64,000 nucleotides of DNA from Rubripirellula sp. (lineage in GTDB: Bacteria; Planctomycetota; Planctomycetia; Pirellulales; Pirellulaceae): the NCBI GenBank assembly GCA_965216875.1, contig OZ244207.1:4768001-4832000 (forward strand), read 5' to 3'. Position numbers and translations under genes: made by a program. This document shows, in pieces, positions 5,219 to 58,500 of this stretch; position 1 is the stretch's first letter; each line of letters begins with the position of its first letter. Under the pieces are notes generated by a model that did not search any database, was not told the DNA's origin, and saw only the letters and a list, made by a program, of their open reading frames with translations.

Positions 5219-5242
5219 CGTTGTAGTGAGCGCATTCGGCTC

Positions 5243-5460
5243 GTAGCTACCTTCGCCAGAAGGTGGTTCCCACGATGAGGCCGATATCCGCTGTCACCAC
5301 GCTCTGGCGAGCGTAGCTACGAACGTGCTAGGCCCGGCCGCTCACGCGTCGCGGCTCATTTGAATGAACTGGAAGCTCGGCAGGAGCCTCGCCCTCCCGA
5401 GAATTCTCTCGTTGCCTCTTTCGAATATGCGAGGCCCGACGCTAGCGCGTTCGGCTCACG
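5243..5460. repeat. Mixed REP mosaic: B2/B1 doublet (5243-5266, 5297-5320), D-like (5331-5358), E (5375-5398), D (5433-5459)
   Basis: Recurrent palindromes; family D overlaps the TGA stop of the convergent ECF gene. Confidence 0.88.
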
Positions 5461-12315: not shown

Positions 12316-13680
12316 TGTATAGACCGGGGACATAGGTAACAGTCGTTCGGGCACATGGGTAACACTTTTTGAATCGGCGAGAATCCCTCCAAATGAGGAG
12401 GGATGATGAGCTGGAAGAAGTGTGACCCGATGTCTGAGCGGATGGAATTTGTGAGACTTGCAGACGGTGATGGAGGTAACTTCTCGGCGTTGTGCGAGCG
12501 ATTTGGGGTATCTAGAAAGACGGGCTACAAGTGGCTCAAACGCTGGCGGGAGGAAGGGCAAGAGGGCCTGGAGGATCGTTCGCGTAGGCCCCAAGACTCG
12601 CCCAACAGAACGGAGGATGTGATTGAACGGATGGTCCTCGAGATCCGCAGTGAGCATCCCGCCTGGGGCGGACGTAAGATTCGAAAGCGTCTCGAGAAGC
12701 TGGGAGTCGCTTCACCGCCGGCGGCCAGCACGATTACCGCTATCCTTCACCGACACCATCAGATCAGCAAAGAGGAGTCGTCCAAGCATCGAGCGTTCGG
12801 AAGTTTTGAACGAGCAGAACCTAATGAACTCTGGCAAGTGGACTTCAAGGGAGAATTCAAGCTCAGCAACAAGAAGCTATGTTATCCGTTGACGGTTTTA
12901 GATGATCATTCGCGTTACTCATTGGCGGTGTTCGCTTGCGGGAACCAACAACGCGAGACAGTCCAGAATCACTTTCGTGATGTTTTTTCACGCTACGGTC
13001 TTCCTCACGCGATTTATGTAGACAACGGCAATCCGTGGAGCAACGGTCATCATGAAATGCGACACACTCGTTTTTCAGCCTGGTTGATGCGCCACGACGT
13101 GGGTGTAATTTTTGGGCGTCCTTACCATCCTCAAGGTCGCGGCAAACTGGAGCGATTTCATCGCACACTCAAACTCGAAGCGTTACAGGGCCAACAGTTC
13201 GACACGTTCCACCAGGTGCAGTCACGTTTTGATCCTTGGCGTGAAATGTACAACCACGAACGTCCGCACGAGGCACTTGAGCTGTCGACCCCATCAGAGC
13301 GTTATCGGATCAGTACGCGAAGTTTTCATGAACGGACCGAGCCGTATCAATACAGCGACCGATTTGAGGTTCGCAAGACAAACCGCTACGGCCAACTGAA
13401 CTACCATGGCAACGTGTACCGCGTCAGCGAGGCCTTCATCGATCAGCCCATCGGGCTGAGTGCTACCACAACCGACGGGGTCTGGGACCTGTGGTATTGC
13501 CGCTTCCGGATTGCCCAGCTTGACGAGCGAGGCAAGACAATTCGCCGGCACCAGCCATGCGTCTGAAGCTCGCTACGCTCGCTCCAGCCGCATGGCTGGT
13601 GCCAGATCGCAGGCAACCCTATGCTGCAAAGTGTTACCTATGTCCCCGAACATGTGTTACCCATGTCCCTGGACAATACA
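12316..13680 (+). mobile_element. IS481-family insertion sequence, 1365 bp, apparently intact
   Basis: TGT...ACA ends; 53-bp imperfect terminal inverted repeats (12316-12368 and 13628-13680, 44/53 identical); 5-bp direct repeat TCAAG at 12311-12315 and 13681-13685. Confidence 0.93.
12403..13566 (+). CDS. IS481-family DDE transposase
   Basis: HTH (LCERFGVSRKTGYKW), DRSRRP, rve core WQVDFKG / YVDNG / PQGRGKLERFH, YNHERPHEAL; GAGGAG SD. Confidence 0.95.
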   Translation: MMSWKKCDPMSERMEFVRLADGDGGNFSALCERFGVSRKTGYKWLKRWREEGQEGLEDRSRRPQDSPNRTEDVIERMVLEIRSEHPAWGGRKIRKRLEKLGVASPPAASTITAILHRHHQISKEESSKHRAFGSFERAEPNELWQVDFKGEFKLSNKKLCYPLTVLDDHSRYSLAVFACGNQQRETVQNHFRDVFSRYGLPHAIYVDNGNPWSNGHHEMRHTRFSAWLMRHDVGVIFGRPYHPQGRGKLERFHRTLKLEALQGQQFDTFHQVQSRFDPWREMYNHERPHEALELSTPSERYRISTRSFHERTEPYQYSDRFEVRKTNRYGQLNYHGNVYRVSEAFIDQPIGLSATTTDGVWDLWYCRFRIAQLDERGKTIRRHQPCV

Positions 13681-20685: not shown

Positions 20686-22527
20686 TTGGAAACGACGGAT
20701 GAGATTGTTGGGCGGCTTCGCCAACACCCAACATCCAGCGGATTGGATGAACATTCACTAAAGCTCATTGCCTCGCGCGCCGAGATCGTCAACGTCGATG
20801 CTGGCGAGCTGCTTCACCGCTCGGGCGAGTCAGTCGACCGAATTCTGTTGATCGACTCCGGGCGACTTCGATTGGAAGTGGTGGTCGGCGAAACGAACAC
20901 GCCCGTCTCCTATTTGTCTGCAGAGCAGCAGTTCGGACTGCTCAGCGTTTTCAAAGACTTTGCTGCGCCCGTCGACCTGGTGGCTGACACTCCATCGACC
21001 GTGTTGGCAATTTCTCGCACCGACGTGCGAGCACTCAGCGACCGATTGCCGCTATGGCGACGCAACCTGGTGCACGCGCTCGGTCTTAATGCCCAGGCCT
21101 TGCTTCCGAGTGGTACAAGTTCCCGGAAGACACATCGAACGTCGGCACTGATTCACTTTCGCCCTCAAACAAGGATCATCACGAGGGAACTCGCACGGCG
21201 TCTTGGCACATCGGGAACCGCCGTCGTTCTCTACACCGATGAGCCGGCAAGTATCGAGTTCCCCAGTGACCATGTGACCGTCAAGTCGATCGCCAGCTCG
21301 AGTGAAATCTGCCTGGCGATCAGTAACATCAAGGCGCAACAGAACCAATCCGATCCTACTCACGTGATCTTCGCCCTGAGCGTCGACTCCGCCTCCGTCG
21401 CATTGGATCCATTGTTGGACGTTTGCGACCGAGCCTATGCTCTGGCGCAACCCAATCACACCTCCACCTCCGAGGATTGGTTTCGCCATATCCGCGATGC
21501 TCGACAGAACACCCAAAACGTGCGGCGTGTCTTGTGTTTGAGCGCTGAGGAATCAGTCGCACCACTGGAACCGAACAGGTCGGCAGAGTCGATCGAGGAG
21601 ATCAAGGTTCACCTGCCAGAACAGGGCGCATCGGAAAGGTTGGTTCAGCTTGGAATCTCCCGACTGTTGCACGATGCATGTGGTGTCCGGCTTGGGATTG
21701 CACTTGGTGGTGGCGCAGCGCGAGGAATGGCGCATCTGGGAGTGCTGCAGACCTTGGAAGAGGCAGGTATTTTCTGTGATGCGATTGCCGGAACAAGTGT
21801 TGGGGCGATGGTTGGCATTGTGCACGCTGGTGGCATCGCCCCCGAAGCTGCAGCTCGTTGTTTCGCCAACGACCTGACCCCCTCGCCGATCGAGCAAAAG
21901 ATCCCCGGCGGAGACGGACTGTACCTGTTGAGGAAGTACCGCACACAGGGCTGGGACTCGATGCTGCGCGTCTATTTGCACGATTGGTGTCTCGAACAGC
22001 TTCCCATTCCCGTCACGAGTGTTTCCGTCGATCTGGTCTCCGGTCAGCAGGTCCATGCGTGTGCTGGGGACGCCGTCCATGCGATTCTGGACAGCATCAA
22101 CTTGCCCGGCCTCAGTCCACCCATTTGTCGCGACGGAAAGGCCTTGGTCGATGGTGGCGTCCTCAACGTCCTGCCCGCCGATGTGCTCGTCCAAAACTAC
22201 AAATGCGACTATGTCATTGCAGTCGACGTTGGTTCAAAACTTTCGGAAGAGTTTGTGGGCAATCGGCCAGACACCGCAACCAGTGAGATGAACACACCGG
22301 GAATCTTCCAAACTTTGATGCGTTCCATGAACGTCCAGAACCGCGACCTTCGAAACATTCGTTCGTGCGTTTCGGACATCACGATCGAACCGCACGTCGA
22401 AAACACCGACGCCGAGGATTTCAAACACGCCGTCGAAATCGCGGCAATCGGAAGAGAAGCCGCCAACGAGATGCTGCCATCACTGCGAGAACAACTCAGC
22501 CGGATCCATCCAGCTCTGCTCCTGTAG
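20686..22527 (+). CDS. cNMP-binding domain plus patatin-like phospholipase (NTE/RssA-like)
   Basis: N-terminal cNMP fold (VDAGELLHRSGE...LIDSGRL...FG); patatin motifs GGGAARG, GTSVG, DGG; TTG start with GAGG SD. Confidence 0.88.
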   Translation: METTDEIVGRLRQHPTSSGLDEHSLKLIASRAEIVNVDAGELLHRSGESVDRILLIDSGRLRLEVVVGETNTPVSYLSAEQQFGLLSVFKDFAAPVDLVADTPSTVLAISRTDVRALSDRLPLWRRNLVHALGLNAQALLPSGTSSRKTHRTSALIHFRPQTRIITRELARRLGTSGTAVVLYTDEPASIEFPSDHVTVKSIASSSEICLAISNIKAQQNQSDPTHVIFALSVDSASVALDPLLDVCDRAYALAQPNHTSTSEDWFRHIRDARQNTQNVRRVLCLSAEESVAPLEPNRSAESIEEIKVHLPEQGASERLVQLGISRLLHDACGVRLGIALGGGAARGMAHLGVLQTLEEAGIFCDAIAGTSVGAMVGIVHAGGIAPEAAARCFANDLTPSPIEQKIPGGDGLYLLRKYRTQGWDSMLRVYLHDWCLEQLPIPVTSVSVDLVSGQQVHACAGDAVHAILDSINLPGLSPPICRDGKALVDGGVLNVLPADVLVQNYKCDYVIAVDVGSKLSEEFVGNRPDTATSEMNTPGIFQTLMRSMNVQNRDLRNIRSCVSDITIEPHVENTDAEDFKHAVEIAAIGREAANEMLPSLREQLSRIHPALLL

Positions 22528-30613: not shown

Positions 30614-31420
30614 TCAGCCGAACAGAATCTCTTTGGTTGGCTTCACGCCGTTGTCGGTTCGGCCACGGTAGAGCCCCACCTTTTGAAGCATCGCCAACGT
30701 TGCAAAGGCAGGATTGGTTGTCGCGTATCGCTTCCACAATCGACCTGGCTCGCGAGTCAAACGAAAGAGCCATTCGAGCCCGTTGCGTTGCATCCAAGCA
30801 GGCGCCTGCTCGAGCATACCTGCGTGGAATGCGAACGCAGCTCCCACGGCGATCAGCGGCATGTCGATGTGATCTTTCATCTCATATGCAAAGATTTCTT
30901 GCCGCGGGCAGCCGAGACCAACAAAGCAGATGCCCGCGCCACTCGCTTTAATCTCTTCGGCGAGACGGTCGCGTTCCTCGGCACTGAGCGTACGGAACTT
31001 TGAAGCGCGTCGACCCGCCACTTGCAGTTTCGGGTACTTCTCCTGCAAACGATCTGCGAACTGATCAAGCATCTCCTCGGTTGCACCAAACAGGAACACG
31101 GGAACGTCCTCCTGGGCCGCCGCCTGGCACAGACGCAACGTCAACTCAGGGCCGTACACACGGTCGGTGAGACCACAGCGATGAATGCGATTGAGTGCCC
31201 AACGGACCGGCTGACCATCAGGGCAAACCAAATCGAATTGGTTCAATCGATACTTATGCTCTTTGTCGTTCACGCCCGTCATCACACCGTGAACGGCCAG
31301 CGCCGTAACGGCGAGCGAACGTCGTTGCTGGGCAGCATCAAGCACGCGTTTGACGGCGGCTTCATAGTCAATCGCGTTGACATTGATGCCAAGCACGTTG
31401 CGTTTTCCGAGATCAATCAT
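30614..31420 (-). CDS. WecB/TagA/CpsF-family glycosyltransferase
   Basis: CPDGQPV, RVYGPEL, VGLGCPRQE, VGAAF, APAWMQRNGLEWLFRL..EP.RLWKRY. Confidence 0.93.
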   Translation of the reverse strand: MIDLGKRNVLGINVNAIDYEAAVKRVLDAAQQRRSLAVTALAVHGVMTGVNDKEHKYRLNQFDLVCPDGQPVRWALNRIHRCGLTDRVYGPELTLRLCQAAAQEDVPVFLFGATEEMLDQFADRLQEKYPKLQVAGRRASKFRTLSAEERDRLAEEIKASGAGICFVGLGCPRQEIFAYEMKDHIDMPLIAVGAAFAFHAGMLEQAPAWMQRNGLEWLFRLTREPGRLWKRYATTNPAFATLAMLQKVGLYRGRTDNGVKPTKEILFG

Positions 31421-32445
31421 TTTGCGGATTCAAGTTGTGTCGTCTCGTTCTTTTCGTCAGCCGACGTTTGCGTGTTGGTTGACGCTGGCCGATGGGTTGG
31501 CGTTGTATCCACCTTGGGATCATGCGTTTGCAACTGGTCGACCATGCATCGAACATCAAATGAGTCGCGGTAAAGCTCCAATGCCCAGCGAACGATTCCA
31601 AGCTTCTTTTCGCGCGACATGTTCATGGCTGGAAAGTAAGCCATGTCCGAATCGTCTTCACAGCCGAGGAAATCAGGCGGGTGCAACAACAACGATGGCG
31701 GACACTTCGTCAGGCGGCAAAGAGCCAAAGCCGACCGAAAGTACGCCTTCGCTGCGAGTGTCGAGAAGCTCGCCAAGTAGGTGAAGTAGCTGAAGTGGAT
31801 CGGTGTCCGTGAAAGCGGCATGACCGTGACCGGCATCTCCCAGAGCGTCTTTTGCGAACCTTCGACCTGTCGCACAAACGGACGGTTGGGTTGTCGCAAG
31901 GAGCTGAAACCGCCGTAAAGCTTCTTGGCTTTCTCACGTTGCTCGCCCTTGAGTCCCGACTTGAGCATGAAGACGGCTCGTGCAAGCGGCGCGATCGAGG
32001 TCGGAAAAATCGAAGCGTCGTAAACGTAGTCGTTTTCAGCAAGCACGCTCAAAACGTCGTCGGGGCAACTGAAACCTGGGCCACGAAATCCGAGCGGGCG
32101 TCGCCCCAGGACTTCAACAATCCGTTGCCCGGTCACGTTGATTTCGTCAGCGATTTCCTCGCTCGACATCGTGTGCATCCACGGCAGATGATTGAGCGAA
32201 TGGTTGGCCGGCTCCCAACGATCCAGACGATCAAACGACGCAATCGCATCGCAATCACTCGACTCGACCAAATCACGTCCCACGATGAAGACGGTCAGAG
32301 GCAAATCCAACTCACCAAGCACTTCGACGATTCGATCAACGGCAAGTTGCAAATAGCCATCGCGGTCCATCCAGTCGTCGCGACCGGCGGCGCGCAGGTA
32401 GGCCCACTTGTTGTCGAGATCAAGTGACAAGCTCGCAACACTCAT
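31417..32445 (-). CDS. Polysaccharide deacetylase (CE4 family)
   Basis: LSLDLD, NHSLNH, GFRGPGF, YDAS, LHPPDF; overlaps both neighbours by 4 nt. Confidence 0.85.
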   Translation of the reverse strand: MSVASLSLDLDNKWAYLRAAGRDDWMDRDGYLQLAVDRIVEVLGELDLPLTVFIVGRDLVESSDCDAIASFDRLDRWEPANHSLNHLPWMHTMSSEEIADEINVTGQRIVEVLGRRPLGFRGPGFSCPDDVLSVLAENDYVYDASIFPTSIAPLARAVFMLKSGLKGEQREKAKKLYGGFSSLRQPNRPFVRQVEGSQKTLWEMPVTVMPLSRTPIHFSYFTYLASFSTLAAKAYFRSALALCRLTKCPPSLLLHPPDFLGCEDDSDMAYFPAMNMSREKKLGIVRWALELYRDSFDVRCMVDQLQTHDPKVDTTPTHRPASTNTQTSADEKNETTQLESAK

Positions 32446-33659
32446 TTCGCACCTCGCGGACGTCTTGAATGCTCTGGCTCTTGGTTCATGACATATCGGA
32501 TTGCATCAACCGCTCCGCTTGCCGCCCACTCTGGCGTTCGGTCGGAAATCGACTCGCGACAAGCTTCTCGCATCTCGGCGATCGATTCGGACGATGCGTC
32601 CAAATAGGAATCGATGCTCCTGGCAAGTGACCCGGACACCGTTGGATCGAACTGCCAACCGTTAACGTCGTCGTCGATCAGCGTCGTCACCGCTTGAGCA
32701 TGAACGCTTCCAATGACCGGCAATCCAGCTTGCAGCGCCTCGTTGACGACAACCAACCACTCATCCGCGAGTGTGGGAGCAATCAACGCACCACTTCGGC
32801 TCATCCGCTCGCTCAACTGCGCTGGCGAAAGATTGCCGAGCATGTTGAGCGTCAGGTTTTCTGGCACGTCAAAGGTCTCGATCGAGTCCCGCAGTGGCCC
32901 TTCGCCGGCAAAAGCGAGTTGCAACTGGCGGTCCGGACGTTGACGGCAATAGGCCGCGACCTGCTCAAGCATCGGCAACACACCCTTGCGCTCGCTCAAT
33001 TGCCCAACGCACAACAGTCGACTTCGCGTTTCGTCATCCTGGCGCGTTACCGGAGCAGCGCTCGCCGAACGATCGTCGGCAGCATAAGGCAGGTGGAAAA
33101 GTTTGTTTGGATCAGTGTCAAACGATTCGAGGTACTCGCGGCACGATGGACCGTTGTAGGTCACCGCGTCGGCCGAGCGAATCAATCGCTTTCGCAACTT
33201 GCTGCGGAGCCAACCGCGCCCCTGTTCGGTCCGTTGAGACATGTAGGTGCAAAGGACAAGTTTGCAATCCCGATTGCGTTGGCAATAGAGCGAGGCACCG
33301 GCCGAACGCGCACCGAGCTCGAGCGACATCACGACATCGGGCTTGAGCGATTTCAGTTGCCGTGTGGTGTCGTAAGGAATGTGCACATAAAGCGGATCCT
33401 CGAAGCCAGCCGACCGATGCCGCCAGCTTTGACGCATCGTCCAGGTGTTTTGAACCGTCACGTTGAGGTCGGCCCAATCGAGTTCGAAGTCACGATTCGG
33501 CTCGATCGGCGTGCTAAGCAAGACATGAAAGTCGCGTACCGAGCGCGCGATCGACTGCAAGACACGAACCTGATAAAGCGGGATGTAGTGCGTTAGAAAA
33601 ACGACACGCGCATCAATCACGTCATCAGTCAAATCGCTCGACGAAGATTGTTCGGTCAC
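32442..33659 (-). CDS. GT4-family glycosyltransferase
   Basis: VGQLSERKG, AGEGPLR, DEWLVVVNEALQAGLPVIGS; start inferred at GTG 33659. Confidence 0.88.
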   Translation of the reverse strand: MTEQSSSSDLTDDVIDARVVFLTHYIPLYQVRVLQSIARSVRDFHVLLSTPIEPNRDFELDWADLNVTVQNTWTMRQSWRHRSAGFEDPLYVHIPYDTTRQLKSLKPDVVMSLELGARSAGASLYCQRNRDCKLVLCTYMSQRTEQGRGWLRSKLRKRLIRSADAVTYNGPSCREYLESFDTDPNKLFHLPYAADDRSASAAPVTRQDDETRSRLLCVGQLSERKGVLPMLEQVAAYCRQRPDRQLQLAFAGEGPLRDSIETFDVPENLTLNMLGNLSPAQLSERMSRSGALIAPTLADEWLVVVNEALQAGLPVIGSVHAQAVTTLIDDDVNGWQFDPTVSGSLARSIDSYLDASSESIAEMREACRESISDRTPEWAASGAVDAIRYVMNQEPEHSRRPRGAK

Positions 33660-33664
33660 GAGCA

Positions 33665-34861
33665 CTATTCGCCACCTCGTCCCATCAGCGGCACCACGAT
33701 TGTCTGGGCGATGAGCGTTAGATCTTTGAAAAACCCGTGTTCGTCGATGTAACGCAGGTCGAGCCGCATCCAATCGTCAAACGTTTTAGCGCGAGACTTG
33801 TTGACTTGCCAGTAGCAGGTCAATCCCGGCCGCACGTCCAATCGTCGTCGATGCCACGGTTGGCAGGCGCGAGATTCATGCCAGGGAAGGGGACGTGGTC
33901 CGACGAGTGACATTTCACCTCGAATCACATTCCAAAGCTGAGGCAATTCGTCGATGCATGTCTTGCGCAAAAGATTGCCCACCCGCGTGACGCGAGGATC
34001 CTTGTCCATCTTGAACGCAGGCCCGTCGCGGTGGTTCTGATCTCGCAGCTCATGCTGGACCTGGTCTGCATTGACCACCATCGTGCGCAATTTGTAGATC
34101 GTGAAAGGCTGACCCATGAAACCTTCGCGGGTCTGCTTGTACATCACAGGCCCTTTGTCAGTCAGCTTGATCGCAAGCATCCCGCCAACGATGAACGGAC
34201 TGGTCAAAACCAGTCCTACCGAACCGCCAACGATGTCGACCGCGCGTTTGAGCGACATTTTTGCAATTGGTCGCTCGACCAATGGATCTTCGGAACTGAC
34301 TTGGACGTCGGCGCCTTCGACGCGGTAGGTGTCGGCACTCTGGGGTGCGCCACGGTCACTACTACGCCGTCGGGAACGGTTCGATTTGGACGAAAACGAA
34401 TCTCCATCCGATGAGGAATCATCATCGGGCTCGAAACCTTCGGGATCGTGCACACGCAGCTGCAAGGTCGCCTTCAGGTTGTGCTGCTCGGTCAATCGGG
34501 TCAGACGCTCGAGAGCCGACCGGCCGCCCATTTCTGGAGTGTCGACGAGAAGGACGGCAAGTTTTGATGGCCCAATCAAACCTTTGTGATCGGTCACCCG
34601 CACATTGCGTTCGAGCAGCCGTGCCAACATCCGAGCGCGGCGGCGTCGGTGCGAGTTGCCAGTCAATTCGATCGTGATCAAGCAGAAGGGAATCGATCGA
34701 CGAGTGGCGCGAATACGTTCGCGCGCAACTTCATGATTGAAATCGGCTGCGGAAAGGAACAATGATCCTTGCCGCGTTCTCGCCGACCTTCGATCGATCA
34801 CTTTGTTGATGAATGCTCCGAGCACTTGGTGCAACCCCATGTTGCGAAACCAGTCGACCAT
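33665..34861 (-). CDS. Priming polyprenyl-phosphate sugar transferase (Bac_transf) with N-terminal degenerate GGDEF-like domain
   Basis: KRAVDI, TM segment, F.IYKLRTM, DPRVTRVG..LRKTCIDELPQLWNV..GEMSLVGPRP, RPGLT, LDL.Y. Confidence 0.92.
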   Translation of the reverse strand: MVDWFRNMGLHQVLGAFINKVIDRRSARTRQGSLFLSAADFNHEVARERIRATRRSIPFCLITIELTGNSHRRRRARMLARLLERNVRVTDHKGLIGPSKLAVLLVDTPEMGGRSALERLTRLTEQHNLKATLQLRVHDPEGFEPDDDSSSDGDSFSSKSNRSRRRSSDRGAPQSADTYRVEGADVQVSSEDPLVERPIAKMSLKRAVDIVGGSVGLVLTSPFIVGGMLAIKLTDKGPVMYKQTREGFMGQPFTIYKLRTMVVNADQVQHELRDQNHRDGPAFKMDKDPRVTRVGNLLRKTCIDELPQLWNVIRGEMSLVGPRPLPWHESRACQPWHRRRLDVRPGLTCYWQVNKSRAKTFDDWMRLDLRYIDEHGFFKDLTLIAQTIVVPLMGRGGE

Positions 34862-34936: not shown

Positions 34937-36529
34937 TTAGCGTGGCAGCGTTGCGACTTGCGAATCACCCGATGTCGCATAGTCGTCTTCGTCAATTCGG
35001 TTCTGTTCCCCGTCAATGTCGTTGTCCCCGGCAACGTCGCCAGCTCCGCCGAATTCACTCGACCCTGGCCGCATGCCGGCGGTGTCTCGCAACAACGCTT
35101 GCAGCACGCCCAACGCCAGTCCCAACAAGCTTCCAAGTGACAGCAGAAGTAGTCGTGGAGGCCCCACCTTTTTGAGATTCAGTGAAGCGGTCTGAATCAC
35201 GCTCACATCGGAGAGGTTTTGGTTGTCCAATTCGTGGACCACCCGCGCGTGTTCAAAACTCTTTGCGTGCTCGAGGTAGTTCTTTTCGGCAATGTCGGCG
35301 GCCCAGCCGAGCTGAGACAATTCGATCGCGTCTTCGTTGAGACGCTGCAAATCGGCCTCGGCTTCTTCGAGGCTGGCAACCAACGAGTCGCGGCGACTCT
35401 TCAAGCCAACACTCTTGGCCCGCGCTTTTTGATACTCCGTCTCGAGTTCTTGGCGAACTGGATTGAGTGCTTCGCGTGTGATTTCGCGGTCGGCGCCCTC
35501 GTTTGAAACGATCGCTTCACCCTCGTCGAGATTCGCCTTCAAACGTTGGTAGCGAGGATGATTGGGCGTCACCTTCAACAGCTCTTCGCCTTTCTCCATC
35601 TGTTCGCCGTAGAGCGCGGTGCGCATCGAATCCTTGGCGTTGTTGGCAAGCCCCTTGGTCACTTCCATCGGAACCCAACTATCGACCGTCGCAAGCTGCT
35701 CGGCCAACGACTTGGCGTGACTTTCCGCGTCGGCGAAACTGCTTTCGGCCGAATCGAGCGAAAGTTCAAGATTGACGATTCGTTCCTGAAGGGTCGCCTC
35801 GGCCGAATCAACGCTGAGCCAACCTGACTTGTTGCGAGCCTCCTGCAGACGCCGTCGTGCTTCGATCGCGGCCTGCTCGCTCTTGTAAATCTGTTCTTTA
35901 AAGAAGCTCAAGGAACCTTGCGCACGATGGGCATCAACGTGGTAACGCTGGTACTGAGACATCACCGCCTCAACGATGTCTTGCGCCAAAAGTGGGTCGC
36001 TCCCGCGGGAAACAACCGACACGGTGTACCCATTGCGTGGAATTGAAATCTCTAGCGATTTGCTGACCCTCTTGATCGCCTCTTCTTTGGCTAATTGAGC
36101 CGAGACTTCCTCCGCATCGAGATCCGTTTCCGCAACGCCTCCCGAGATCGCAAGGCTCTGACCTATTCGATCCAGCCATGTGCGCGGTCGATTGATCTCC
36201 TCGACACCAACGATCTCAACGGCCCGTTCGGCAATCGCACGACTGCCGACCATTTCGGCGACGCTCACGACCTCGGCTGCGCGGCTCTCTTGTAATGAAA
36301 TCGACTTCGATGGAAGCGTTGTTGGGTCGAGCGAAACCGCGCCGCGACCAAGGCGGACATACATCAATCCGTCACTGCTGTAGCGGTTGGGCCATACCAA
36401 CAACGTCCCCGCTACAATCACACCCACAACCACCGTTGTCACCACAATCGATCGCCACTGGCGCATCACCGAGCGCATCAAATCGGATGGCGTGACCGAA
36501 GCCCAAGCTTCTGCGGTGTAGCGGTCCAT
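34937..36529 (-). CDS. Polysaccharide co-polymerase / chain-length determinant (GumC-like, no kinase domain)
   Basis: N-terminal TM, P..Y.S motif, long coiled coils, PNHP, P.R + GxxxG C-terminal TM. Confidence 0.85.
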   Translation of the reverse strand: MDRYTAEAWASVTPSDLMRSVMRQWRSIVVTTVVVGVIVAGTLLVWPNRYSSDGLMYVRLGRGAVSLDPTTLPSKSISLQESRAAEVVSVAEMVGSRAIAERAVEIVGVEEINRPRTWLDRIGQSLAISGGVAETDLDAEEVSAQLAKEEAIKRVSKSLEISIPRNGYTVSVVSRGSDPLLAQDIVEAVMSQYQRYHVDAHRAQGSLSFFKEQIYKSEQAAIEARRRLQEARNKSGWLSVDSAEATLQERIVNLELSLDSAESSFADAESHAKSLAEQLATVDSWVPMEVTKGLANNAKDSMRTALYGEQMEKGEELLKVTPNHPRYQRLKANLDEGEAIVSNEGADREITREALNPVRQELETEYQKARAKSVGLKSRRDSLVASLEEAEADLQRLNEDAIELSQLGWAADIAEKNYLEHAKSFEHARVVHELDNQNLSDVSVIQTASLNLKKVGPPRLLLLSLGSLLGLALGVLQALLRDTAGMRPGSSEFGGAGDVAGDNDIDGEQNRIDEDDYATSGDSQVATLPR

Positions 36530-36953
36530 TGATGGAAGCTCTGATTGAGTAACGAAGTCGTGCCCACCCCGATGGCGGTTGACCAGATGCGGCCAAGCGC
36601 AACATTGAAGAAGTGACCGATCGTCCCGAACGTTGTCAGCTCTAGGCTATTCACGCTTTCAAACTAGGACAAATAGGTTATTTCGGGGCCTAAGTTGTAA
36701 TTTGAAAAAAGGGCAAAGTATAGCAATTAGGCGCAATTTAATGCCAAAGCCCTCCCGCTAACCTCAATCCCCGCCGCAGGGGTGACTTGGTGAACATTAA
36801 TCCAGACCAAGAAGCGGCGGTCTGCACACCCCCTCGATTAGCTACCTGAAACAACTCGCGCGATTGCTCAGCTGTCCAGAGCTTGTCGCGCGAAGTCAAA
36901 TTCATCACGACCGTCCCAACCTGCGCATCCCGGTGCCAACGGAGTCCCCTCGC

Positions 36954-37616
36954 ATGCCACTTTCACGAACACCTGAACCACCGATGCCCGATGCGAGCGT
37001 CGAGGCGTTCGAGTACCAGCAGATGGACCACAGCGAGGTGAACCGCAAATTCATCGACGAGCTATTGGCGGGTGGCGAAACCGGGTTCGAAGTGATTGAT
37101 CTCGGATGCGGTCCTGCCCAAATTGCAATTGAGCTTTGCCGACGCGATGCGTCCTACCGAGTGATGGGCATCGACGCCGAAATCGAGATGCTCGAACTGG
37201 CCAAAATGGAAATTGACATGGCCGGGATGCTCGACCAGATCACTCTGGCGCACGCAGACGCCACGTCGATGGACGAGTTCGAGGACGAAATGGCCGATTT
37301 GGTCATGAGCAACAGCCTGATTCATCACCTCGATGATCCGATCGAAGGGCTGAAGTCCTGCGTCCGGCTGGTTCGTCCCGGTGGGCGGCTTTTCGTTCGG
37401 GACTTGGCACGGCCCGATTCGGAAGCGGAAGTCGAGTCGCTGGTGAAGGCCTATACCGAGGGGGAATCGGAATTCGCCACTCAACTGTTTCGCCAATCCC
37501 TGCACGCGTCGCTGACGGCAGATGAAATCCGTAGCCTCATCGGGGGCCTTGGCATCGCGGGCGATCACGTTCAAATGTCAAGCGATCGACACTGGACGCT
37601 CGATTGGCGAAAGTGA
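36954..37616 (+). CDS. Class I SAM-dependent methyltransferase
   Basis: VIDLGCGPA, GIDA..EML, SNSLIHH, VRPGG; GGAG SD before ATG 36954. Confidence 0.88.
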   Translation: MPLSRTPEPPMPDASVEAFEYQQMDHSEVNRKFIDELLAGGETGFEVIDLGCGPAQIAIELCRRDASYRVMGIDAEIEMLELAKMEIDMAGMLDQITLAHADATSMDEFEDEMADLVMSNSLIHHLDDPIEGLKSCVRLVRPGGRLFVRDLARPDSEAEVESLVKAYTEGESEFATQLFRQSLHASLTADEIRSLIGGLGIAGDHVQMSSDRHWTLDWRK

Positions 37617-37643
37617 ACCAACACGCTCAACGCGAGACGCTGC

Positions 37644-38438
37644 ATGCGCACTTACCTGCAACTACTCGACGAAGTCTTGACTCATGGAATTGACCGCGAA
37701 GACCGCACGGGCGTGGGCACGCGTGGCTTGTTTGGTCGCCAAATCCGGTTTGACCTCTCGGAAGGCTTTCCGCTGCTGACCACCAAAGAAGTGCATGTTC
37801 GCTCGGTCATTTACGAACTGCTTTGGTTCCTGCGTGGCGACACCAACGTTAGCTGGTTGAAAGAGAACGGCGTGTCGATTTGGGACGAATGGGCCGATGA
37901 AAACGGCAACCTGGGACCTGTCTACGGACACCAGTGGAGGTCATGGGAAACACCTGGTGGGGAAACGATCGACCAAATCAAGGACGTCGAAAACGAGATT
38001 CGCACCAACCCAAAATCACGCCGCCTGATCGTCTCGGCTTGGAATGTGGCCGACGTGCAACGTATGAAGCTGCCGCCGTGCCATTTGTTGTTTCAGTTCT
38101 ACGTCGCGGGCGATCGGCTGTCGTGCCAGCTTTACCAACGCAGCGCCGATCTCTTTTTGGGCGTTCCCTTCAACATCGCCAGCTACGCACTCTTGACGAT
38201 GATGATGGCCAAGGTCACCGGGCTGAAACCGGGCGACTTTGTTCACACGTTTGGCGACTTGCACCTGTACCGCAACCATTTCCAACAGGCCCGCGAGCAG
38301 CTTTCTCGGCACCCCAAGCCGCTGCCGACGATGAACATCTTGTCGAGCCCCGAGTCGGTCACCGACTTCAACTTCGAAGATTTTCAAATCGTCGACTACG
38401 ACCCACACCCACGAATCAAAGCCCCAGTCGCGGTTTGA
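37644..38438 (+). CDS. thyA: Thymidylate synthase
   Basis: DRTGVGT, FPLLTTK, IWDEWA, LGPVYG, LPPCH, YQRSAD, GVPFN. Confidence 0.98.
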
Positions 38439-38451
38439 GCCGCACAACGAA

Positions 38452-38574
38452 GTAGGCCGGATCGTTTGGTTCGTAGTCACGCCTTTAGGCGGTCTGCGAT
38501 AAGATTCCGGCTGAAGCCGCCCGACCTTCTTCTACCCCGTTCCACCAATCCCACGCTCTGGCGAGCGTAGCTAC
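38452..38574. repeat. REP mosaic inside the thyA-folA pair: truncated H (38452-38463), C doublet (38473-~38520), inverted B1 (38551-38574)
   Basis: GTAGGCCGGATC, GTAGTCACGCCTTTAGGCGG and CCACGCTCTGGCGAGCGTAGCTAC. Confidence 0.82.
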
Positions 38575-38585
38575 GCCAACAAGAC

Positions 38586-39122
38586 ATGCCCCAGGACGAC
38601 TTTCAAAAGAGACTTACTGGGCCAGAAAGCCTGACTTGCGTTGTTGCCATGACGCCAACCGGTGTGATCGGTCGAGATGGCGACATGCCTTGGCGTCTGA
38701 GCAGCGACCTGCGTCGGTTCAAGAAGATGACGATGGGCGGCACGCTGTTGATGGGGCGACGCACCTACGATTCGATCGGCCGACCGCTACCTGGACGGCG
38801 AACGATCGTGATCACGCGCAACGCCGACTGGTCGGCTGACGGAGTCGATCGGGCCAGCAGCCCTGAGGCAGCGGTCGAGATGATCGGCGACAACCGCGGG
38901 TTCGTGGTCGGCGGAGCAGAAATCTATCGACTGCTGCTCCCGCAGTGCCAGTACCTTTGGCTAACCCGCGTCTGGTCCTCGGTCGAAGGGGACACGGTGC
39001 TCGACCTCGACCTGGCTCCCTTTGAAGTCATTTCGTCGATGCGGATCCCAGCATCCCCTCGCGATGACGTGCCGACAGAGTTTTTCCAGATGAAACGAAG
39101 AACAGACCTGGGAGATTCTTGA
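38586..39122 (+). CDS. folA: Dihydrofolate reductase
   Basis: VIGRDGDMPWRLSSDLRRFK..T, MGRRTYDSIGRPLPGR, VGGAEIY, GDT. Confidence 0.95.
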   Translation: MPQDDFQKRLTGPESLTCVVAMTPTGVIGRDGDMPWRLSSDLRRFKKMTMGGTLLMGRRTYDSIGRPLPGRRTIVITRNADWSADGVDRASSPEAAVEMIGDNRGFVVGGAEIYRLLLPQCQYLWLTRVWSSVEGDTVLDLDLAPFEVISSMRIPASPRDDVPTEFFQMKRRTDLGDS

Positions 39123-42559: not shown

Positions 42560-43873
42560 TCAGCCTGACATGCCCTGTGCCATGCGCCAGGCTCGCTGCT
42601 GCTTTTCGAGACCGACCTCTCGGCTGATTGCAGCCCAACGATCTCTCACGCCTTCAAGGGCCGCGGCCGGTTCCGCATCACCGCTCACGCAACGCAGCAC
42701 TGCCTCGTCGAGCGCGACATAGTACTGGTCCGCAGCATTCATTTTGATCGTCGGCAAGACATTCGAAACCGCTAGTGCCTCGCGGACAACGCTGGCGTAA
42801 CCGACGTCGGCCGCCCCGTCGCCACCTCCGGTGCGTCGATTCAACGTCATCGCGGCAACCTCGCGGCGGGCGAGCTCACTCCCCTCGCCGCCCGCTAGCC
42901 ATCGCACAAACAACTTCGACACGTCTGACTGTCGGCATCGATCTGCAAGTGAGGCGACCAGCGAGTAAGGGTCAAGGACGACTTTGGGAAGCGAGGTGGC
43001 CGGAATCGCTGCGAAGCTATAGTCCTGGTCGGTCGTCACATCGCCCGAAGAGAATCCGATGGCGCCCTTCAAGCGACCGTCGCCAAGAGCTTCCCAAATC
43101 TGATTTGGATTGCTCGGCTCAACTGGACTTCGCTGGACGGTCGTACGCATTTGAGTCAAAACGTCGACGAACGGTTGGTCGGCAATCTTGGGTTCAAAAT
43201 TCTGCAAACCGAACAACCAACCGCGGGAGAGTGTCGATGCTGCGCGCCAAAGGAACATCGTTCCCGCCCACCCATCGGCAAGTGGTTCGGCGACCGCTCC
43301 GCCCAGCGATTCGCCCCACTGATCATATTCCTGCCACGTCGCCGGACTCGCCGCTTCGTCTGCTGAGATGACCGAAGGCTGTCGCCCTCCAAGCGGCAGC
43401 CCAACGATCGAACTACCGTGACGCATCACGCCATTTCTAAGCGAGGCCAGAAAGGCGCCACCACTTTGTTCGGCAAGCTTCACTTCGCTTTCGGCCAGGT
43501 CATAGATCCGGCCTTTTCCCTCGAGCTCCGTGACGGCCATCAGGGGGTAAATCAGGACGTCTTGTTTCTCACTTGCCTCGATCAATTTGTCGATCGTGTC
43601 GGTCCCCGTCCTGGACTCCTCGATCAACGTGAACTCCAACGCCTGTGGACTGATCGATGTCCATGCGCGAGCGATCGCATCCTGGTCCGCCTGAGAACCC
43701 CACAGCATCACGCGAAGCGGGACGTCGCTGAATTCGAATTCTGCCTCGCCCGATTCCGACTCCTCGTCTTTCGACTTCGAGCAACCGGCAAGGCCAACGC
43801 CGCTGACCAGGGCTGCCGATCCGGCGGCAAGAACTTGGCGGCGGCTGAATTGATGAACCGATCGATCCGACAC
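42560..43873 (-). CDS. Extracellular solute-binding lipoprotein (sugar SBP-like, Tat-type signal)
   Basis: SRRQVL twin-arginine motif plus LAGC lipobox; PATWQEY, F.RWLAG, Y..ALD patterns typical of SBPs; divergent sequence. Confidence 0.7.
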   Translation of the reverse strand: MSDRSVHQFSRRQVLAAGSAALVSGVGLAGCSKSKDEESESGEAEFEFSDVPLRVMLWGSQADQDAIARAWTSISPQALEFTLIEESRTGTDTIDKLIEASEKQDVLIYPLMAVTELEGKGRIYDLAESEVKLAEQSGGAFLASLRNGVMRHGSSIVGLPLGGRQPSVISADEAASPATWQEYDQWGESLGGAVAEPLADGWAGTMFLWRAASTLSRGWLFGLQNFEPKIADQPFVDVLTQMRTTVQRSPVEPSNPNQIWEALGDGRLKGAIGFSSGDVTTDQDYSFAAIPATSLPKVVLDPYSLVASLADRCRQSDVSKLFVRWLAGGEGSELARREVAAMTLNRRTGGGDGAADVGYASVVREALAVSNVLPTIKMNAADQYYVALDEAVLRCVSGDAEPAAALEGVRDRWAAISREVGLEKQQRAWRMAQGMSG

Positions 43874-54089: not shown

Positions 54090-55637
54090 CTAGGCGTCGA
54101 CTCCGATCAAATCACATGCCTCGCGGTATCCGGGCGCGGGCGTCCCGTATTCGCTTGCCGAAACACGAGCCAACGCGATCAACTGTCGCCATTGATAGTT
54201 TTCACGAGTGTTGGCGAATTCTTCGGTCGCCGTGCGGAAATACTTTTCAGCATGTAGCGCGCCGTCTTCGCTGGTCGCAAACCTCAGCAACACGTCAAAC
54301 GCTTCGCGTGGCCGCCCACCAGCATCGCCGAATTGTGCGATCGCAGCAGCCGCACGGGCTTGATTGCGATCACGCACCGCCTCATCGGCAGCACGTAAGA
54401 GGGTCGAATGATCTTGAACCGAGCGCAGGTCGTCTTGCCCATAATCCCAGGGCTCGCGGCGCACGCGCGGACTTTGCCCGGCCGAGTGATAGGCTCCTAG
54501 CAAGACGCTGACGATCGCATTTCGCTGATCGCTCACCCGAGCGATGTTGCGCCACGCGTTCGCTGCATCGCAGGCATGAACGCCAACCGACGCACCGTGA
54601 ACGCTGCCTTTGACCTTGTCACCATCTCCATCTTTTGATCGACCCGGATCATGCAAAAGCAATCGGTTTGCGGCGATGGATGTCGCTTCGCCAATCTGGT
54701 CCGGTGAATAGCCATCGGCCAGTGCTTGTGCGGCAGCCTCGGCGGCCTGAGCACGATTGCTCTGGAAAATCGTCCAAGACAGGTCTTCGACCCAAGCGTC
54801 GTCACCTTTGCGAGTTCCCGGTGCCTTCCCGGCCAATCCATGTTGATCCAAGAGTTTTGGAATCAACTTCCAAACCTCGGGGTCGGGGCGGCCTTTGCGA
54901 ATACGCGTCTGCGATGAATCAAGACAGAAACGAACCGACTGGCGAAGCAACGTATTGGCATGCTGTTCACCCACAAGATCAATCGCGACCCATGCGCGCC
55001 AGGCCAACACGACGCGATGCACATTGGTCTCGTCCTGGACCGGGTATTGAACATGGTTGAACTGATTGCCAGGTGCGTTTCCAGCAATCGATGCCATGAT
55101 CGCTTCGGCCGACTTGGTATCGGCGCGACGTGTTGACTGTTGAAGCTCGATTCCCACATGCTTCACGCCATCATGCTTGGCTTGATCCTGTCGCAATAAG
55201 CGTTCACGACTCGAACCGCCGAATTGATGAATCCGATCTGTGTTGCGATACAGCACCTTCAACACCGGAAGCACTCGTCGCTCCGTCGGCAGCTCACGCG
55301 ACATCTCGAGCGACGGAGTGAGCGCCATGAAGGTGTGGTAACCGATGTAGTCATGACCGCCGAACGTTCTTGCATTTGCAAGGCATCCCGCCGCAACGAG
55401 CGTCTCGAGGTCAGTGCCTTGATTGATCTTCTTCAACAACAACGGCTGAAGCTTTGAAAGCGGCGTGTCCTGCATCATCGCGACCAGCGGTTCCATGTCG
55501 CCAAACGTCAAACGCTGTGGCTCTTCGGACGCCAGTGCCGTGTTGATTCCCAGATCACTTGCCAGCGATGTCCCCAACGTTCCAACCAGCATGCCCGTGC
55601 CAACGTTGGACAAGAATTCGCGACGATTGCGTTGCAT
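54090..55637 (-). CDS. Tat-exported hypothetical protein with repeated His-containing helical units
   Basis: NRREFL twin-arginine signal; 515 aa; no recognised catalytic motif. Confidence 0.8.
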   Translation of the reverse strand: MQRNRREFLSNVGTGMLVGTLGTSLASDLGINTALASEEPQRLTFGDMEPLVAMMQDTPLSKLQPLLLKKINQGTDLETLVAAGCLANARTFGGHDYIGYHTFMALTPSLEMSRELPTERRVLPVLKVLYRNTDRIHQFGGSSRERLLRQDQAKHDGVKHVGIELQQSTRRADTKSAEAIMASIAGNAPGNQFNHVQYPVQDETNVHRVVLAWRAWVAIDLVGEQHANTLLRQSVRFCLDSSQTRIRKGRPDPEVWKLIPKLLDQHGLAGKAPGTRKGDDAWVEDLSWTIFQSNRAQAAEAAAQALADGYSPDQIGEATSIAANRLLLHDPGRSKDGDGDKVKGSVHGASVGVHACDAANAWRNIARVSDQRNAIVSVLLGAYHSAGQSPRVRREPWDYGQDDLRSVQDHSTLLRAADEAVRDRNQARAAAAIAQFGDAGGRPREAFDVLLRFATSEDGALHAEKYFRTATEEFANTRENYQWRQLIALARVSASEYGTPAPGYREACDLIGVDA

Positions 55638-55797: not shown

Positions 55798-56478
55798 TCA
55801 ATCAACCAAATCGCCCAGTTGCTGCCGCAAACGCTTGAGCACCCTCGATTTTGCGACCCGAACGGTCCCCGGACGCATCCCCAGCGATTCGGCGACTTCG
55901 GATGCCGACTTTCCTTCGATCGCAACGCCCCAGAAGGCTTCCCAGGTTTGTGGCTTGAATTCTTCGCGGATCATCTCAATGGCGCGGCGATACAGTTCAT
56001 GTTCGGCACGCAAATCGTCTTCATCATGAATCAACTCATCATCACAGTCCTCAGCTTGACCGAGCCGAAGCTGAGCCTCTGTCCCACCCGCCGCGGCAGG
56101 TTGGCGACCGAGGCGGCGAAAGTGATCCGTGATTTTGTTGCGAGTGATCGTTCGCAACCAACCTCGAAACGTGTCACTGGGGCGGTCTTTGTGAAACGAT
56201 TCGATGCTGCCAATCACCGATCGAAAGACCTCTTGGTTGATGTCCGCGCAATCTTGACTGGCCAAACCCGCCTTCTGGCACCAATAGAAGATCAGGGGCG
56301 AATAGAGGTGCACGAGATCTTTCCAAGCCGGAGTCTCGTTGCGTTTGAGTCGTTCAATCAAACTAAGCGATGTTGCTCCGGCCGATGCACCCGCTGATGC
56401 GCTTGCGGCACCGCCAGATGCACTGGTGCACTCTGAAGCATTGGCGGGCGACGATTCGTTTTCACCACTCTGCTTCAT
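55798..56478 (-). CDS. ECF sigma factor (planctomycete kinase-associated type)
   Basis: TSLSLIERL, AWKDLVHLYSPLI..W, QEVF, FRGWLRTITRNK, sigma4 VRVAKSRVLKRLR; ATGA overlap with the upstream kinase. Confidence 0.92.
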   Translation of the reverse strand: MKQSGENESSPANASECTSASGGAASASAGASAGATSLSLIERLKRNETPAWKDLVHLYSPLIFYWCQKAGLASQDCADINQEVFRSVIGSIESFHKDRPSDTFRGWLRTITRNKITDHFRRLGRQPAAAGGTEAQLRLGQAEDCDDELIHDEDDLRAEHELYRRAIEMIREEFKPQTWEAFWGVAIEGKSASEVAESLGMRPGTVRVAKSRVLKRLRQQLGDLVD

Positions 56479-58409
56479 GGGCGCGCTGCCCCATCGAATG
56501 GACGTCCTGAATTGCGATCACCTCGATAGGCAAACAACAATCCAAACGCCGTCATCACCCCCGCGATCACCATGACCAAGATCGACGCGCCACGAAATCC
56601 ACTTCGCGTACGTGCAATGTCTCGATCGAGTGGCCGAGTCAGACGCAAGACGCCTGCCAAGTCTCCGGTCTTCCAATCGGTCTTGGGCGTCTGCTCATGG
56701 GTGTTGTGACACTGGATGCAACTCTGTTTCATCAGTTGGCCACGCGCATACTTTAGGTACGAACGATCACCGATCGTCACGAACTCAAAGTGTTCCAGCG
56801 CCGCCTCACTCTCTTGCCCCAACTGGCGACTTCGTCGAATCACTTCGTCGAACTCGTCGAGCGTTTCATGCTCGAACCGTTCATCCGGTCGCAGCTCTTC
56901 ACGAAACGAATAAGGACTGAAGATACGAACCTTCACCCCCGTTTCGCGGCGGCTGATCCGTTCGGCCACCTCGATTTGCAGCGTCGCGGGCAACGGCGGC
57001 GGCACTTTCCCAGTATCCTCGCCATGCCCAAAGAACTGTCCTCGCGCATCGCTGTACGAAGCGTTGAACTCCTCAAGCATGTCACAGTAAAGCCGCGCGT
57101 TGTCGAGCGCCATCTCCTGGACGAACCACGTGTTGAGCGATTTGAGGTAGGCGAAACCCGCCATCGATCCGACCAACACACCGATGAACATCGCTGCTGC
57201 GAACGGGTATCGCCGGCACCAACGCCACAGTCGCTCGCGATAACCGATCGGTCGGGCAAGGATGGGAGTCCCCGCCAGAAAACGTCGCAAGTCCTCGGCC
57301 ATCGCGCGAGCCGATTCGTAGCGCCGTGCGGGTGACTTGGACATCGCCTTTTGACAGATCACTTCCAAGTCTCTTGGTATGGAATCATCCAATTGCCGCG
57401 GCGGACGAGGCTCGTCTTCCAAAACCTGAAGCAACAACAGCCGTTTCGTTCCCTGGAAAGGACGTTGCCCGGTCAGCATCTCGTACAGGATCACGCCAAG
57501 ACTGTAGACGTCGCTTCGCGCGTCGGCATGATGGGCAGCACCACTAGCGTGCTCGGGAGACATGTAGGCGGGCGTGCCCATGATCCGCCCGTCGGAGGTC
57601 ATCGACGCGTCGACGGCATCCCGTTTGGCCAAACCAAAATCGGTGATGTGCGGATGCCCGTCGGCGTCGATCAAGACGTTCGAAGGCTTCACGTCTCGAT
57701 GCACCACGCCATGTTCGTGAGCGTATTGCAGCGCGTCGGCAATCTCGGCAATCAGACCGGCCGCTCTCTGGTGCCCCGATCGTCCCGCTTGCAGTCGAGC
57801 CTCAAGCGTTTCACCTTCAACGAATTCAGTGACGAGAAAACAGACTCCATCTTCGGTCTGCCCGGTGTCATGAAGTGAAACGATCGACGGATGCGAAAGG
57901 GGCGCCGCACTCCTTGCTTCACGCAGAAACCGCTGCGCCTCTTCTTCGGTCGCAACGCTGCCGGCGCGTTGAATCTTGACGGCGACAATGCGATCAAGTT
58001 CAGTATCTTTGGCGCGAAACACGTGACCAAAGGAACCAACGCCGATCTCCTCGACCAGTTCAAAACGTCCGAGCCGACATGTTCCCTCGCGCAAAAGACG
58101 CGAATAGTAACGTCCCGCATCAAAGGGAACGTCGACCGAAGAACCGTCATCCAAAGTACGGATGATCGCGTCGGCACTTTTCTTGACGACTTCTTGGGGA
58201 ACGCCGCTTTGACCGTTGCTCGCGACTTCGGAAAGACTGCGAAGTCCCGAAACCAAATCGTCGCCACCGCCTGACTCGAGGGCCTCGAGTGAGGCTTCGC
58301 ACCGCTGACATTGATCGACGTGTGTCGCCACACGTTCAAACTCAGTCGAAGACAAACTTCCAACCGCAAAAGCGGCGAGCTGTTCGGAATCGGGGCAGGG
58401 GTCTTTCAT
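56475..58409 (-). CDS. Ser/Thr kinase with N-terminal zinc finger and periplasmic c-type heme (Tll0287/DUF3365-like) domain
   Basis: HVDQCQRC; IGVGSFG, VAVK, HRDVKPSN, DFGLA, GTPAYMSPE; TM, then CIQCH...W..GD..G, then TM. Confidence 0.9.
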   Translation of the reverse strand: MKDPCPDSEQLAAFAVGSLSSTEFERVATHVDQCQRCEASLEALESGGGDDLVSGLRSLSEVASNGQSGVPQEVVKKSADAIIRTLDDGSSVDVPFDAGRYYSRLLREGTCRLGRFELVEEIGVGSFGHVFRAKDTELDRIVAVKIQRAGSVATEEEAQRFLREARSAAPLSHPSIVSLHDTGQTEDGVCFLVTEFVEGETLEARLQAGRSGHQRAAGLIAEIADALQYAHEHGVVHRDVKPSNVLIDADGHPHITDFGLAKRDAVDASMTSDGRIMGTPAYMSPEHASGAAHHADARSDVYSLGVILYEMLTGQRPFQGTKRLLLLQVLEDEPRPPRQLDDSIPRDLEVICQKAMSKSPARRYESARAMAEDLRRFLAGTPILARPIGYRERLWRWCRRYPFAAAMFIGVLVGSMAGFAYLKSLNTWFVQEMALDNARLYCDMLEEFNASYSDARGQFFGHGEDTGKVPPPLPATLQIEVAERISRRETGVKVRIFSPYSFREELRPDERFEHETLDEFDEVIRRSRQLGQESEAALEHFEFVTIGDRSYLKYARGQLMKQSCIQCHNTHEQTPKTDWKTGDLAGVLRLTRPLDRDIARTRSGFRGASILVMVIAGVMTAFGLLFAYRGDRNSGRPFDGAARP

Positions 58410-58500
58410 CGGATCACTTTGATGGCTCTCGCCGTCAACAAAACGCAACGACACGCTTCACAGAACGTCATTGCGTTACATCCTTTCGCGATTCACATCG

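Follow-up and report, generated by a model that had tools for sequence, protein, structure and literature searches.

The window analysed here is a stretch of 64,000 nucleotides from Rubripirellula sp. (contig OZ244207.1, positions 4,768,001 to 4,832,000 of the forward strand), and all coordinates refer to it. The gene of interest encodes a fusion of a degenerate, small GGDEF-like domain to a priming transferase, and is the second in a co-oriented run made up of a Wzz-type co-polymerase, the fusion, a GT4 enzyme, a deacetylase and a WecG enzyme:

34937-36529, minus strand: Wzz/Wzc-N-type polysaccharide co-polymerase, directly upstream of the fusion (TIGR03007, E 5e-30, below cut-off)
33665-34861, minus strand: fusion gene, degenerate mini-GGDEF plus monotopic phosphoglycosyl transferase (PGT), 398 aa as called
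32442-33665, minus strand: GT4 glycosyltransferase (the ORF as listed begins at 33773)
31417-32445, minus strand: polysaccharide deacetylase (PF01522, E 1.7e-11), 4-base overlap with the GT4 gene
30614-31420, minus strand: WecG/TagA/CpsF glycosyltransferase (PF03808, E 5e-57), 4-base overlap with the deacetylase gene

The co-polymerase gave weak Wzz and GNVR matches and no kinase domain was matched in it, and the probable GTG start of the GT4 gene overlaps the stop codon of the fusion by one base. In 52 related loci (from Pirellulaceae, Rhodopirellula, Stieleria, Rubripirellula and other records, several of them on short contigs) homologues of the co-polymerase were present in 39, of the GT4 enzyme in 28, of the deacetylase in 31 and of the WecG enzyme in 34. 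No flippase, polymerase or outer-membrane exporter was identified in the cluster; members of flippase and exporter families are encoded at other places in the genome. Divergently oriented to the cluster is a methyltransferase-thyA-DHFR run leading into rpsM (36864-39122, plus strand; labels read from translations), a neighbourhood that is kept in relatives (methyltransferase in 37 and thyA in 33 of the 52 loci). Elsewhere the window carries an IS481-type transposase (rve, LZ_Tnp_IS481; 12403-13566, plus strand), a fusion of a cyclic-nucleotide-binding domain to a patatin phospholipase (20686-22527, plus strand), a Ser/Thr kinase fused to a Tll0287-like domain (56475-58454, minus strand) adjoining an ECF sigma factor (55798-56478), and three minus-strand ORFs with no Pfam family at E 1e-5 (437 residues, 42560-43873; 515 residues, 54090-55637; 230 residues, 3413-4105).

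The fusion protein divides into three parts:

34445-34759, minus strand: degenerate GGDEF-fold domain, residues 35-139 (profile matches; model pLDDT 83-97 here)
34313-34438, minus strand: low-complexity linker, predicted disordered, residues about 142-183 (pLDDT <50 at 155-182)
33692-34249, minus strand: Bac_transf (monoPGT) catalytic domain, residues 205-390 (PF02397, E 4.2e-60)

Relatives mostly begin 20 residues ahead of the GGDEF-like domain and their first methionine aligns with V13, so that translation probably starts at the GTG at 34825, giving a protein of 386 aa; residue numbers throughout are those of the 398-aa reading.

A preliminary description of this DNA had taken the protein to be a priming glycosyltransferase, and this identity was borne out on several counts. 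The match to PF02397 scored 202.8 bits against a gathering score of 27, and the hallmarks of a monoPGT, one re-entrant hydrophobic helix and an Asp-Glu dyad (DExxQ), are present, read from motif and hydropathy as a single hydrophobic segment at 207-234 and the pair D304-E305. The dyad is found in 267 of 268 fused proteins, and the top VIA-align matches of the full-length model were WbaP (Z 20.7) and PglC (Z 18.9), both to the catalytic domain. The predicted activity of this half is the transfer of a sugar-1-phosphate to undecaprenyl phosphate. Membership of the large monoPGTs (WbaP/WcaJ/EpsZ) was ruled out, as the protein is without the N-terminal four-helix membrane bundle and nucleotide-binding domain; the NCBIfam large-PGT models matched only residues ~200-396, all below cut-off, EpsZ among them, which ranked second of the NCBIfam models for the catalytic domain. 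Across the fused family the linker varies from 15 to 216 aa (median 67), and the genome encodes four further monoPGTs that have no GGDEF-like domain.

The GGDEF likeness of residues ~35-139, which the preliminary description had read from a residue pattern, is undetectable from the single sequence and emerges with profiles and folds. In a Pfam search with the fusion protein alone the N-terminal domain had no match up to E 5, and BLAST of the domain against a cyclase encoded in the same window (6359-8647) gave nothing significant (best E 2.3). With a family profile built from 34 relatives, nine of the ten PDB sequences matched at E<=10 were GGDEF proteins, the best being GcbC (5EUH, E 3.9e-4). 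In the opposite direction PF00990 matched 12 of the 34 family members at E<=10 (best 2e-4); the fusion protein itself gave no match, and P0144, a distant member with three copies of the domain, passed at whole-protein level. An Atlas search returned mostly unnamed clusters, one of which has GGDEF in 13% of its members and is a lead only.

For the fold searches a model of the domain built from the single sequence was left out as poor (pLDDT 55.8), and a full-length model built from 126 sequences was used (mean pLDDT 86.9, pTM 0.79, disorder at 155-182). With VIA-align this predicted model matched over 30 GGDEF entries at Z 10-17: the best for the N-terminal domain was 6KHU (Z 17.0, rmsd 2.3 A over 120 residues), followed by 6D9M (14.6), GcbC (14.4), PleD (13.8), PelD (10.9) and BcsE (about 9), and polymerase palm folds came after the GGDEF entries, at Z 8.9 and below. 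The top of the Foldseek ranking was the same, and profiles and both structural searches thus confirm the fold. In the model the domain is a shrunken GGDEF, the region after strand 1 being shortened; the C-terminal GGDEF helix is missing and the low-complexity linker occupies its expected place, and some structural alignments reach residues 186-197, immediately ahead of the membrane helix. 6KHU, a 131-residue GGDEF-like protein of Thermotoga maritima, is likewise short and has no GGDEF motif in the alignment; identity to the fusion's domain is 10-15%, and the solved chain has no PGT. BcsE of E. coli cellulose synthesis, another degenerate GGDEF protein, was matched at Z 8.5-9.2 in its c-di-GMP-bound structures. 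It is an accessory subunit of the cellulose synthase complex and, unlike the fusion, contains no priming enzyme.

Both catalytic motifs of a diguanylate cyclase have gone:

34652-34669, minus strand: E65-L-T-G-N-S70 at the place of the lost DxDxFK metal/GTP-binding motif (sequence)
34559-34573, minus strand: G97-P-S-K-L101 replacing GG(D/E)EF, variable across the family (sequence and alignments)

The loss of both motifs, also noted in the preliminary description, holds family-wide: an intact GG(D/E)EF loop was found in 0 of 294 family domains and DxDxFK in 0 of 268 fused proteins. An active diguanylate cyclase was therefore ruled out, the catalytic motifs being absent.

The residues of the c-di-GMP inhibitory site (I-site), by contrast with the catalytic loop, are kept:

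34589-34600, minus strand: R88-V-T90-D91, predicted primary I-site RxxD (120/120 close homologues)
34700-34720, minus strand: E48-x-x-R51-x-x-R54, helix-1 motif, predicted secondary I-site (alignment to 5EUH)
34505-34507, minus strand: R119, candidate third primary-site arginine (120/120 close relatives)

R88 and D91 precede the GGDEF position by nine and six residues, a PelD-type spacing, and the earlier observation that the RxxD lies five residues before GPSKL, as RDGD-LVARY-GGEEF does in the cyclase at 6359-8647, was confirmed. In the alignment to 5EUH, E48, R51 and R54 fall on GcbC E360, R363 and R366. By motif offsets we take R54 to be the equivalent of DgcR R163 and R51 that of PleD R313; R119 is at what is presumably the spacing of PleD R390. 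The GcbC numbering was anchored on Q355, S356 and W361 (PMC4676286). R363 and R366 of GcbC are described as I-site-proximal, with R363 stabilising the c-di-GMP-bound GGDEF dimer (PMC6050961), and c-di-GMP cross-linking through an RxxD and a helix arginine has been reported (PMC8041772).

Conservation was scored first in close relatives, the window protein with 119 of 120 listed homologues (128 found; the near-self P0003 omitted). E48, R51, R54, R88, T90, D91 and R119 were invariant in all 120 rows, and positions 97-101 varied. A wide search of 1.84 billion representatives gave 1118 proteins at E<=0.001, and the best 150 of these were examined: 77 had a PGT domain, 10 another tail, and 63 stopped within 110 residues past the domain (fragments or stand-alone forms). 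The 166 domains of these best 150 of 1118 carried R88 in 162/164, D91 in 165/166, R54 in 154/158, R51 in 153/158, E48 in 152/157 and R119 in 47/127. Both sets had been picked with a profile that contains the scored residues, which calls for a control of bias, and a further search was therefore made in which the query was only the PGT part of P0201, a distant member, the domain then being scored with a profile in which six columns were masked. Of the 120 proteins selected in this way 35 were too short; in the remaining 85 the PGT is preceded by 110 residues or more, and every one of them has the domain. R88 was found in 85/85, D91 in 84/85, R54 in 83/83, E48 in 82/83 and R51 in 81/83, at a mean identity of 37% among 46 non-redundant rows; position 119 was mostly D, K or N. 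These proteins are kin of one query and thus not independent events, and 17 near-identical matches of another architecture with a 30-residue leader (P0282-P0297, P0339) were left uncounted. Retention of the RxxD in orthologues, proposed in the preliminary description as a check, therefore holds in proteins selected by their PGT.

Pooling gave 268 fused proteins with 294 domains, of which 118 were non-redundant (<60% identity) with a mean identity of 29%. D91 and R88 were each present in 116/118 of these, R54 in 114/116, E48 in 112/116 and R51 in 109/116, and all five jointly in 103/116. Together with L105 they fill the six best-conserved columns, and in the columns of the GGDEF loop the commonest residue reached at most 34%. 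R119 was found in 39 of the 118 domains and is invariant only in the Pirellulaceae-like clade. R88 and D91 together with E48, R51 and R54 are thus selectively conserved despite catalytic loss, which rules out a chance motif, and from the alignments the family appears to retain both halves of a c-di-GMP cross-linking site.

Because GGDEF domains have an RxxD by consensus, finding one carries little weight by itself. As a control we took the 40 top-scoring PF00990 domains, one per genome, of which 39 could be parsed. RxxD occurred in 37 of these intact domains, R54 in 36, E48 in 20, R51 in 19 and all five residues in 17, in a set that leans to consensus and in which ungapped motif anchoring misplaces some rows (one on the wrong motif). 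In the genome of the window itself the GG(D/E)EF is intact in 11 GGDEF domains; RxxD is kept in 2 of the 11 and all five residues in none, so that these residues are dispensable for the GGDEF fold. The RxxD is thus ancestral and its mere presence is no proof, and it is readily lost where unneeded, yet the fusion family has kept it. The cyclase at 6359-8647 (plus strand) is one of the two with an RxxD: it has an HD-PAS-GGDEF architecture with an intact GGEEF, no helix-1 arginines, and an HD domain with the HD pair and no GYP motif. A homologue of this cyclase lies beside the cluster in only 2 of the 52 loci; in L034 (9058-11289, minus strand) a 62%-identical homologue comes directly after the fusion gene and convergent to it, and in L032 (12249-13280, plus strand) a matching protein comes after the WecG gene. 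Since PF00990 was found in 301 of the 301 Planctomycetota genomes searched, co-occurrence of the fusion with cyclases is uninformative.

The joint retention of the RxxD and the helix-1 ExxRxxR points to ligand-bridged dimerisation of two chains, as in PleD, GcbC and DgcR. A complex of two copies of residues 28-398 was modelled with four c-di-GMP molecules riding along, the ligand being unscored. The homodimer scored 0.68, against 0.00 for the best of three controls; in the calibration, which was unlike the present job, 20 of 30 pairs of solved structure and 1 of 23 single chains of solved structure reached the mark set for this score. The runs shared at least 51% of contacts with pLDDT of at least 69, and the confident contacts, in both chains, were confined to residues 47, 50-51, 54-55, 57, 88-90 and 106-107, so that helix 1 faces the RxxD loop; none of the confident contacts joins PGT to PGT. 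The pairing through the I-site patch is a model that may echo solved I-site dimers.

The preliminary description had proposed an in-cis c-di-GMP sensor on the transferase. The fused domain stands; bridging between two chains is the better reading than a simple allosteric pocket in cis, the patch being a two-sided cross-linking site made of RxxD and ExxRxxR. The mechanism that we favour would begin with c-di-GMP binding to the degenerate GGDEF domain, which we consider probable. By analogy with PleD, DgcR and GcbC, we infer that each of two bridging sites would hold a dimeric c-di-GMP, with the RxxD supplied by one chain and the helix-1 arginines by its partner, so joining two PGT copies at the cytoplasmic face. 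Dimerisation would then alter the rate of the first membrane step in a surface-polysaccharide pathway, probably upward; this change in PGT activity is a weaker inference than the bridging. Taken as a whole, the proposal that c-di-GMP bridges two fusion chains and switches the priming reaction, probably on, seems to us somewhat better than an even bet. We hold activation about twice as likely as inhibition on three grounds: polysaccharide synthases in known systems are stimulated by c-di-GMP, WbaP functions in dimeric form, and for EpsZ an activation through dimer stabilisation has been proposed (PMC10942596 for WbaP and PMC12802240 for EpsZ). Against this, small monoPGTs such as PglC are described as working as monomers (PMC10942596), and R119 occurs in a minority of domains, whereas binding of c-di-GMP by PelD requires a third arginine, R402, besides R367 and D370 (PMC2170427). 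The variable length of the linker and a dimer model with no confident PGT-PGT contact also count against it, as they show no route from bridging to the active site.

Of the other readings, the one that survives best, although we hold it unlikely, is that c-di-GMP binding governs localisation or assembly (with the co-polymerase, a cyclase or the cell pole) and not catalytic rate. The long and variable linker, a dimer model in which the catalytic domains do not touch with confidence, and the Wzz-type co-polymerase in three quarters of related loci (39/52) are in keeping with it, as is the fact that degenerate-GGDEF receptors such as PopA control localisation; whole-chain pTM (0.79), judged by the sizes of the domains, suggests a defined placement of both domains, and where post-translational control of a priming PGT is known, it is the activity that is controlled. 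A little less likely again is that the Arg/Asp patch is a ligand-independent protein interface, for a homodimer or for docking of a partner, inherited from an I-site. The dimer model shows direct residue contacts at the patch, R119 is not conserved family-wide, and the I-site of GcbC is needed for contact with LapD and proposed to engage LapD itself (PMC6050961); arginines dominating both sides would, however, be expected to need an anionic bridge, and the conserved set is that of known c-di-GMP contacts. We think it improbable that the domain senses another anionic ligand, such as another cyclic dinucleotide, a nucleotide sugar or UMP: residue conservation does not name the ligand, and the accessory domain of WbaP binds uridine nucleotides with a proposed allosteric role (PMC10942596), but the fold and residues here are those of a c-di-GMP I-site, unlike the Rossmann-like domain of WbaP. 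That the domain is no more than a relic or a structural spacer, its motif persisting by descent from a consensus seen in nearly all top-scoring GGDEF domains, is very improbable given five exposed-type charged residues at 94-98% against a mean identity of 29% beside a scrambled catalytic loop, and given that 9 of the 11 cyclases of the same genome have lost the RxxD.

The architecture to which the bridging proposal applies is not peculiar to this genome and spans Planctomycetota and deltaproteobacterial/Thermodesulfobacteriota-type records, with an orthologue in Rhodopirellula baltica SH 1 (P0088). The domain is patchy, present in 13 of 41 genomes among relatives, the window genome included. 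A phylum-wide search gave 60 of 301 Planctomycetota genomes, a figure that is not a count of fusions: the 20 top places of this search comprised 10 PGT fusions, 5 intact cyclases, 2 degenerate GGDEF proteins of other kinds, 2 bare domains (one of them truncated where its contig ends) and 1 place without a match. A PGT tree was made by a quick method and has many open branches, and no origin or order of events was drawn from it; in one well-supported branch the fused PGTs enclose 18 that have no such domain, which could reflect true loss of the domain or gene calls cut short.

Variants of the architecture were also seen. Tandem copies of the degenerate domain, two or three per protein, occur in the PGTs P0141, P0144, P0146, P0185, P0190, P0192, P0204, P0205, P0213 and P0249, with the RxxD kept in most copies, and such copies could cross-link inside one chain. 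Four of the best 150 of the 1118 representatives (P0212, P0214, P0218 and P0229) join the degenerate mini-GGDEF to a PilZ domain (PF07238, E 6e-11 to 8e-10), placing two candidate c-di-GMP-binding modules in a protein of 250-270 residues. In locus L063 the degenerate domain (4880-5260, minus strand) forms an ORF of its own, of 126 residues; after it come a PGT ORF that is partial and a small PGT that is complete. A Wzc-type kinase gene lies alongside, and the arrangement is that of a fusion that has been split or broken.

The fusion can be set beside several characterised systems. PelD, like the fusion's domain, has a degenerate GGDEF fold (4DMZ, Z 10.9, rmsd 3.4 A over 111 residues), no GG(D/E)EF, an RxxD I-site and a gene in a polysaccharide cluster; unlike the fusion it is described as a membrane protein in its own right that has no catalytic role and belongs to a synthase-type pathway, with R402 also needed (PMC2170427). 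In the fusion the domain sits on a lipid-carrier priming enzyme and the extra conserved residues are those of the helix-1 ExxRxxR. GcbC (5EUH), DgcR and PleD share the RxxD and the helix-1 arginines at the same positions, and the predicted dimer of the fusion uses the same patch; these three are active cyclases in which the cross-link serves product inhibition, whereas the fusion has lost the catalytic motifs and its predicted output is a transferase. A regulatory domain fused to a Bac_transf enzyme is already known: in All4160 of Anabaena PCC 7120 (STAS plus Bac_transf), and in XssP, an N-terminal regulatory domain controls polysaccharide formation, with STAS serine phosphorylation, not a nucleotide messenger, as the input and with a different fold (PMC13555669). 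Post-translational control of an initiating monoPGT, with dimer stabilisation proposed, is described for EpsZ-EpsW of Myxococcus xanthus and WbaP of Salmonella (PMC12802240, PMC10942596). WbaP is reported as a dimer and PglC as a monomer; EpsZ and WbaP are large monoPGTs with a four-helix bundle and a Rossmann-like domain, and their activator is a separate phosphorylated receiver, whereas in the fusion there is just one hydrophobic segment, as in a small monoPGT. A full-text literature search found no description of a GGDEF-PGT fusion, the main survey of monoPGT fusions (O'Toole 2021) lying outside its coverage, and the terms GGDEF, diguanylate and c-di-GMP are absent from the main text of a 2024 monoPGT survey (PMC11257628).

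If the favoured mechanism is true, this would be the first case found in which a second messenger binds the enzyme that starts a polysaccharide pathway of the lipid-carrier type. HfsK is reportedly a c-di-GMP effector in holdfast synthesis. According to a 2025 paper, post-translational control of Wzx/Wzy pathways is incompletely understood, and c-di-GMP allostery is given there only for synthase-dependent pathways (PMC12802240). Priming transferases use a limited pool of undecaprenyl phosphate that is common to peptidoglycan. The broadest form of the proposal, that these proteins make up a widespread, unannotated class of priming transferases switched directly by c-di-GMP through a minimal two-sided I-site clasp that dimerises the enzyme, stands in our view at an even chance; if it is true, current family libraries would be missing a portable receptor module for c-di-GMP. 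The family offers a soluble domain of 110 residues with named residues and hence a direct and cheap test, and it may provide a candidate c-di-GMP effector for the planctomycetes, R. baltica SH 1 among them.
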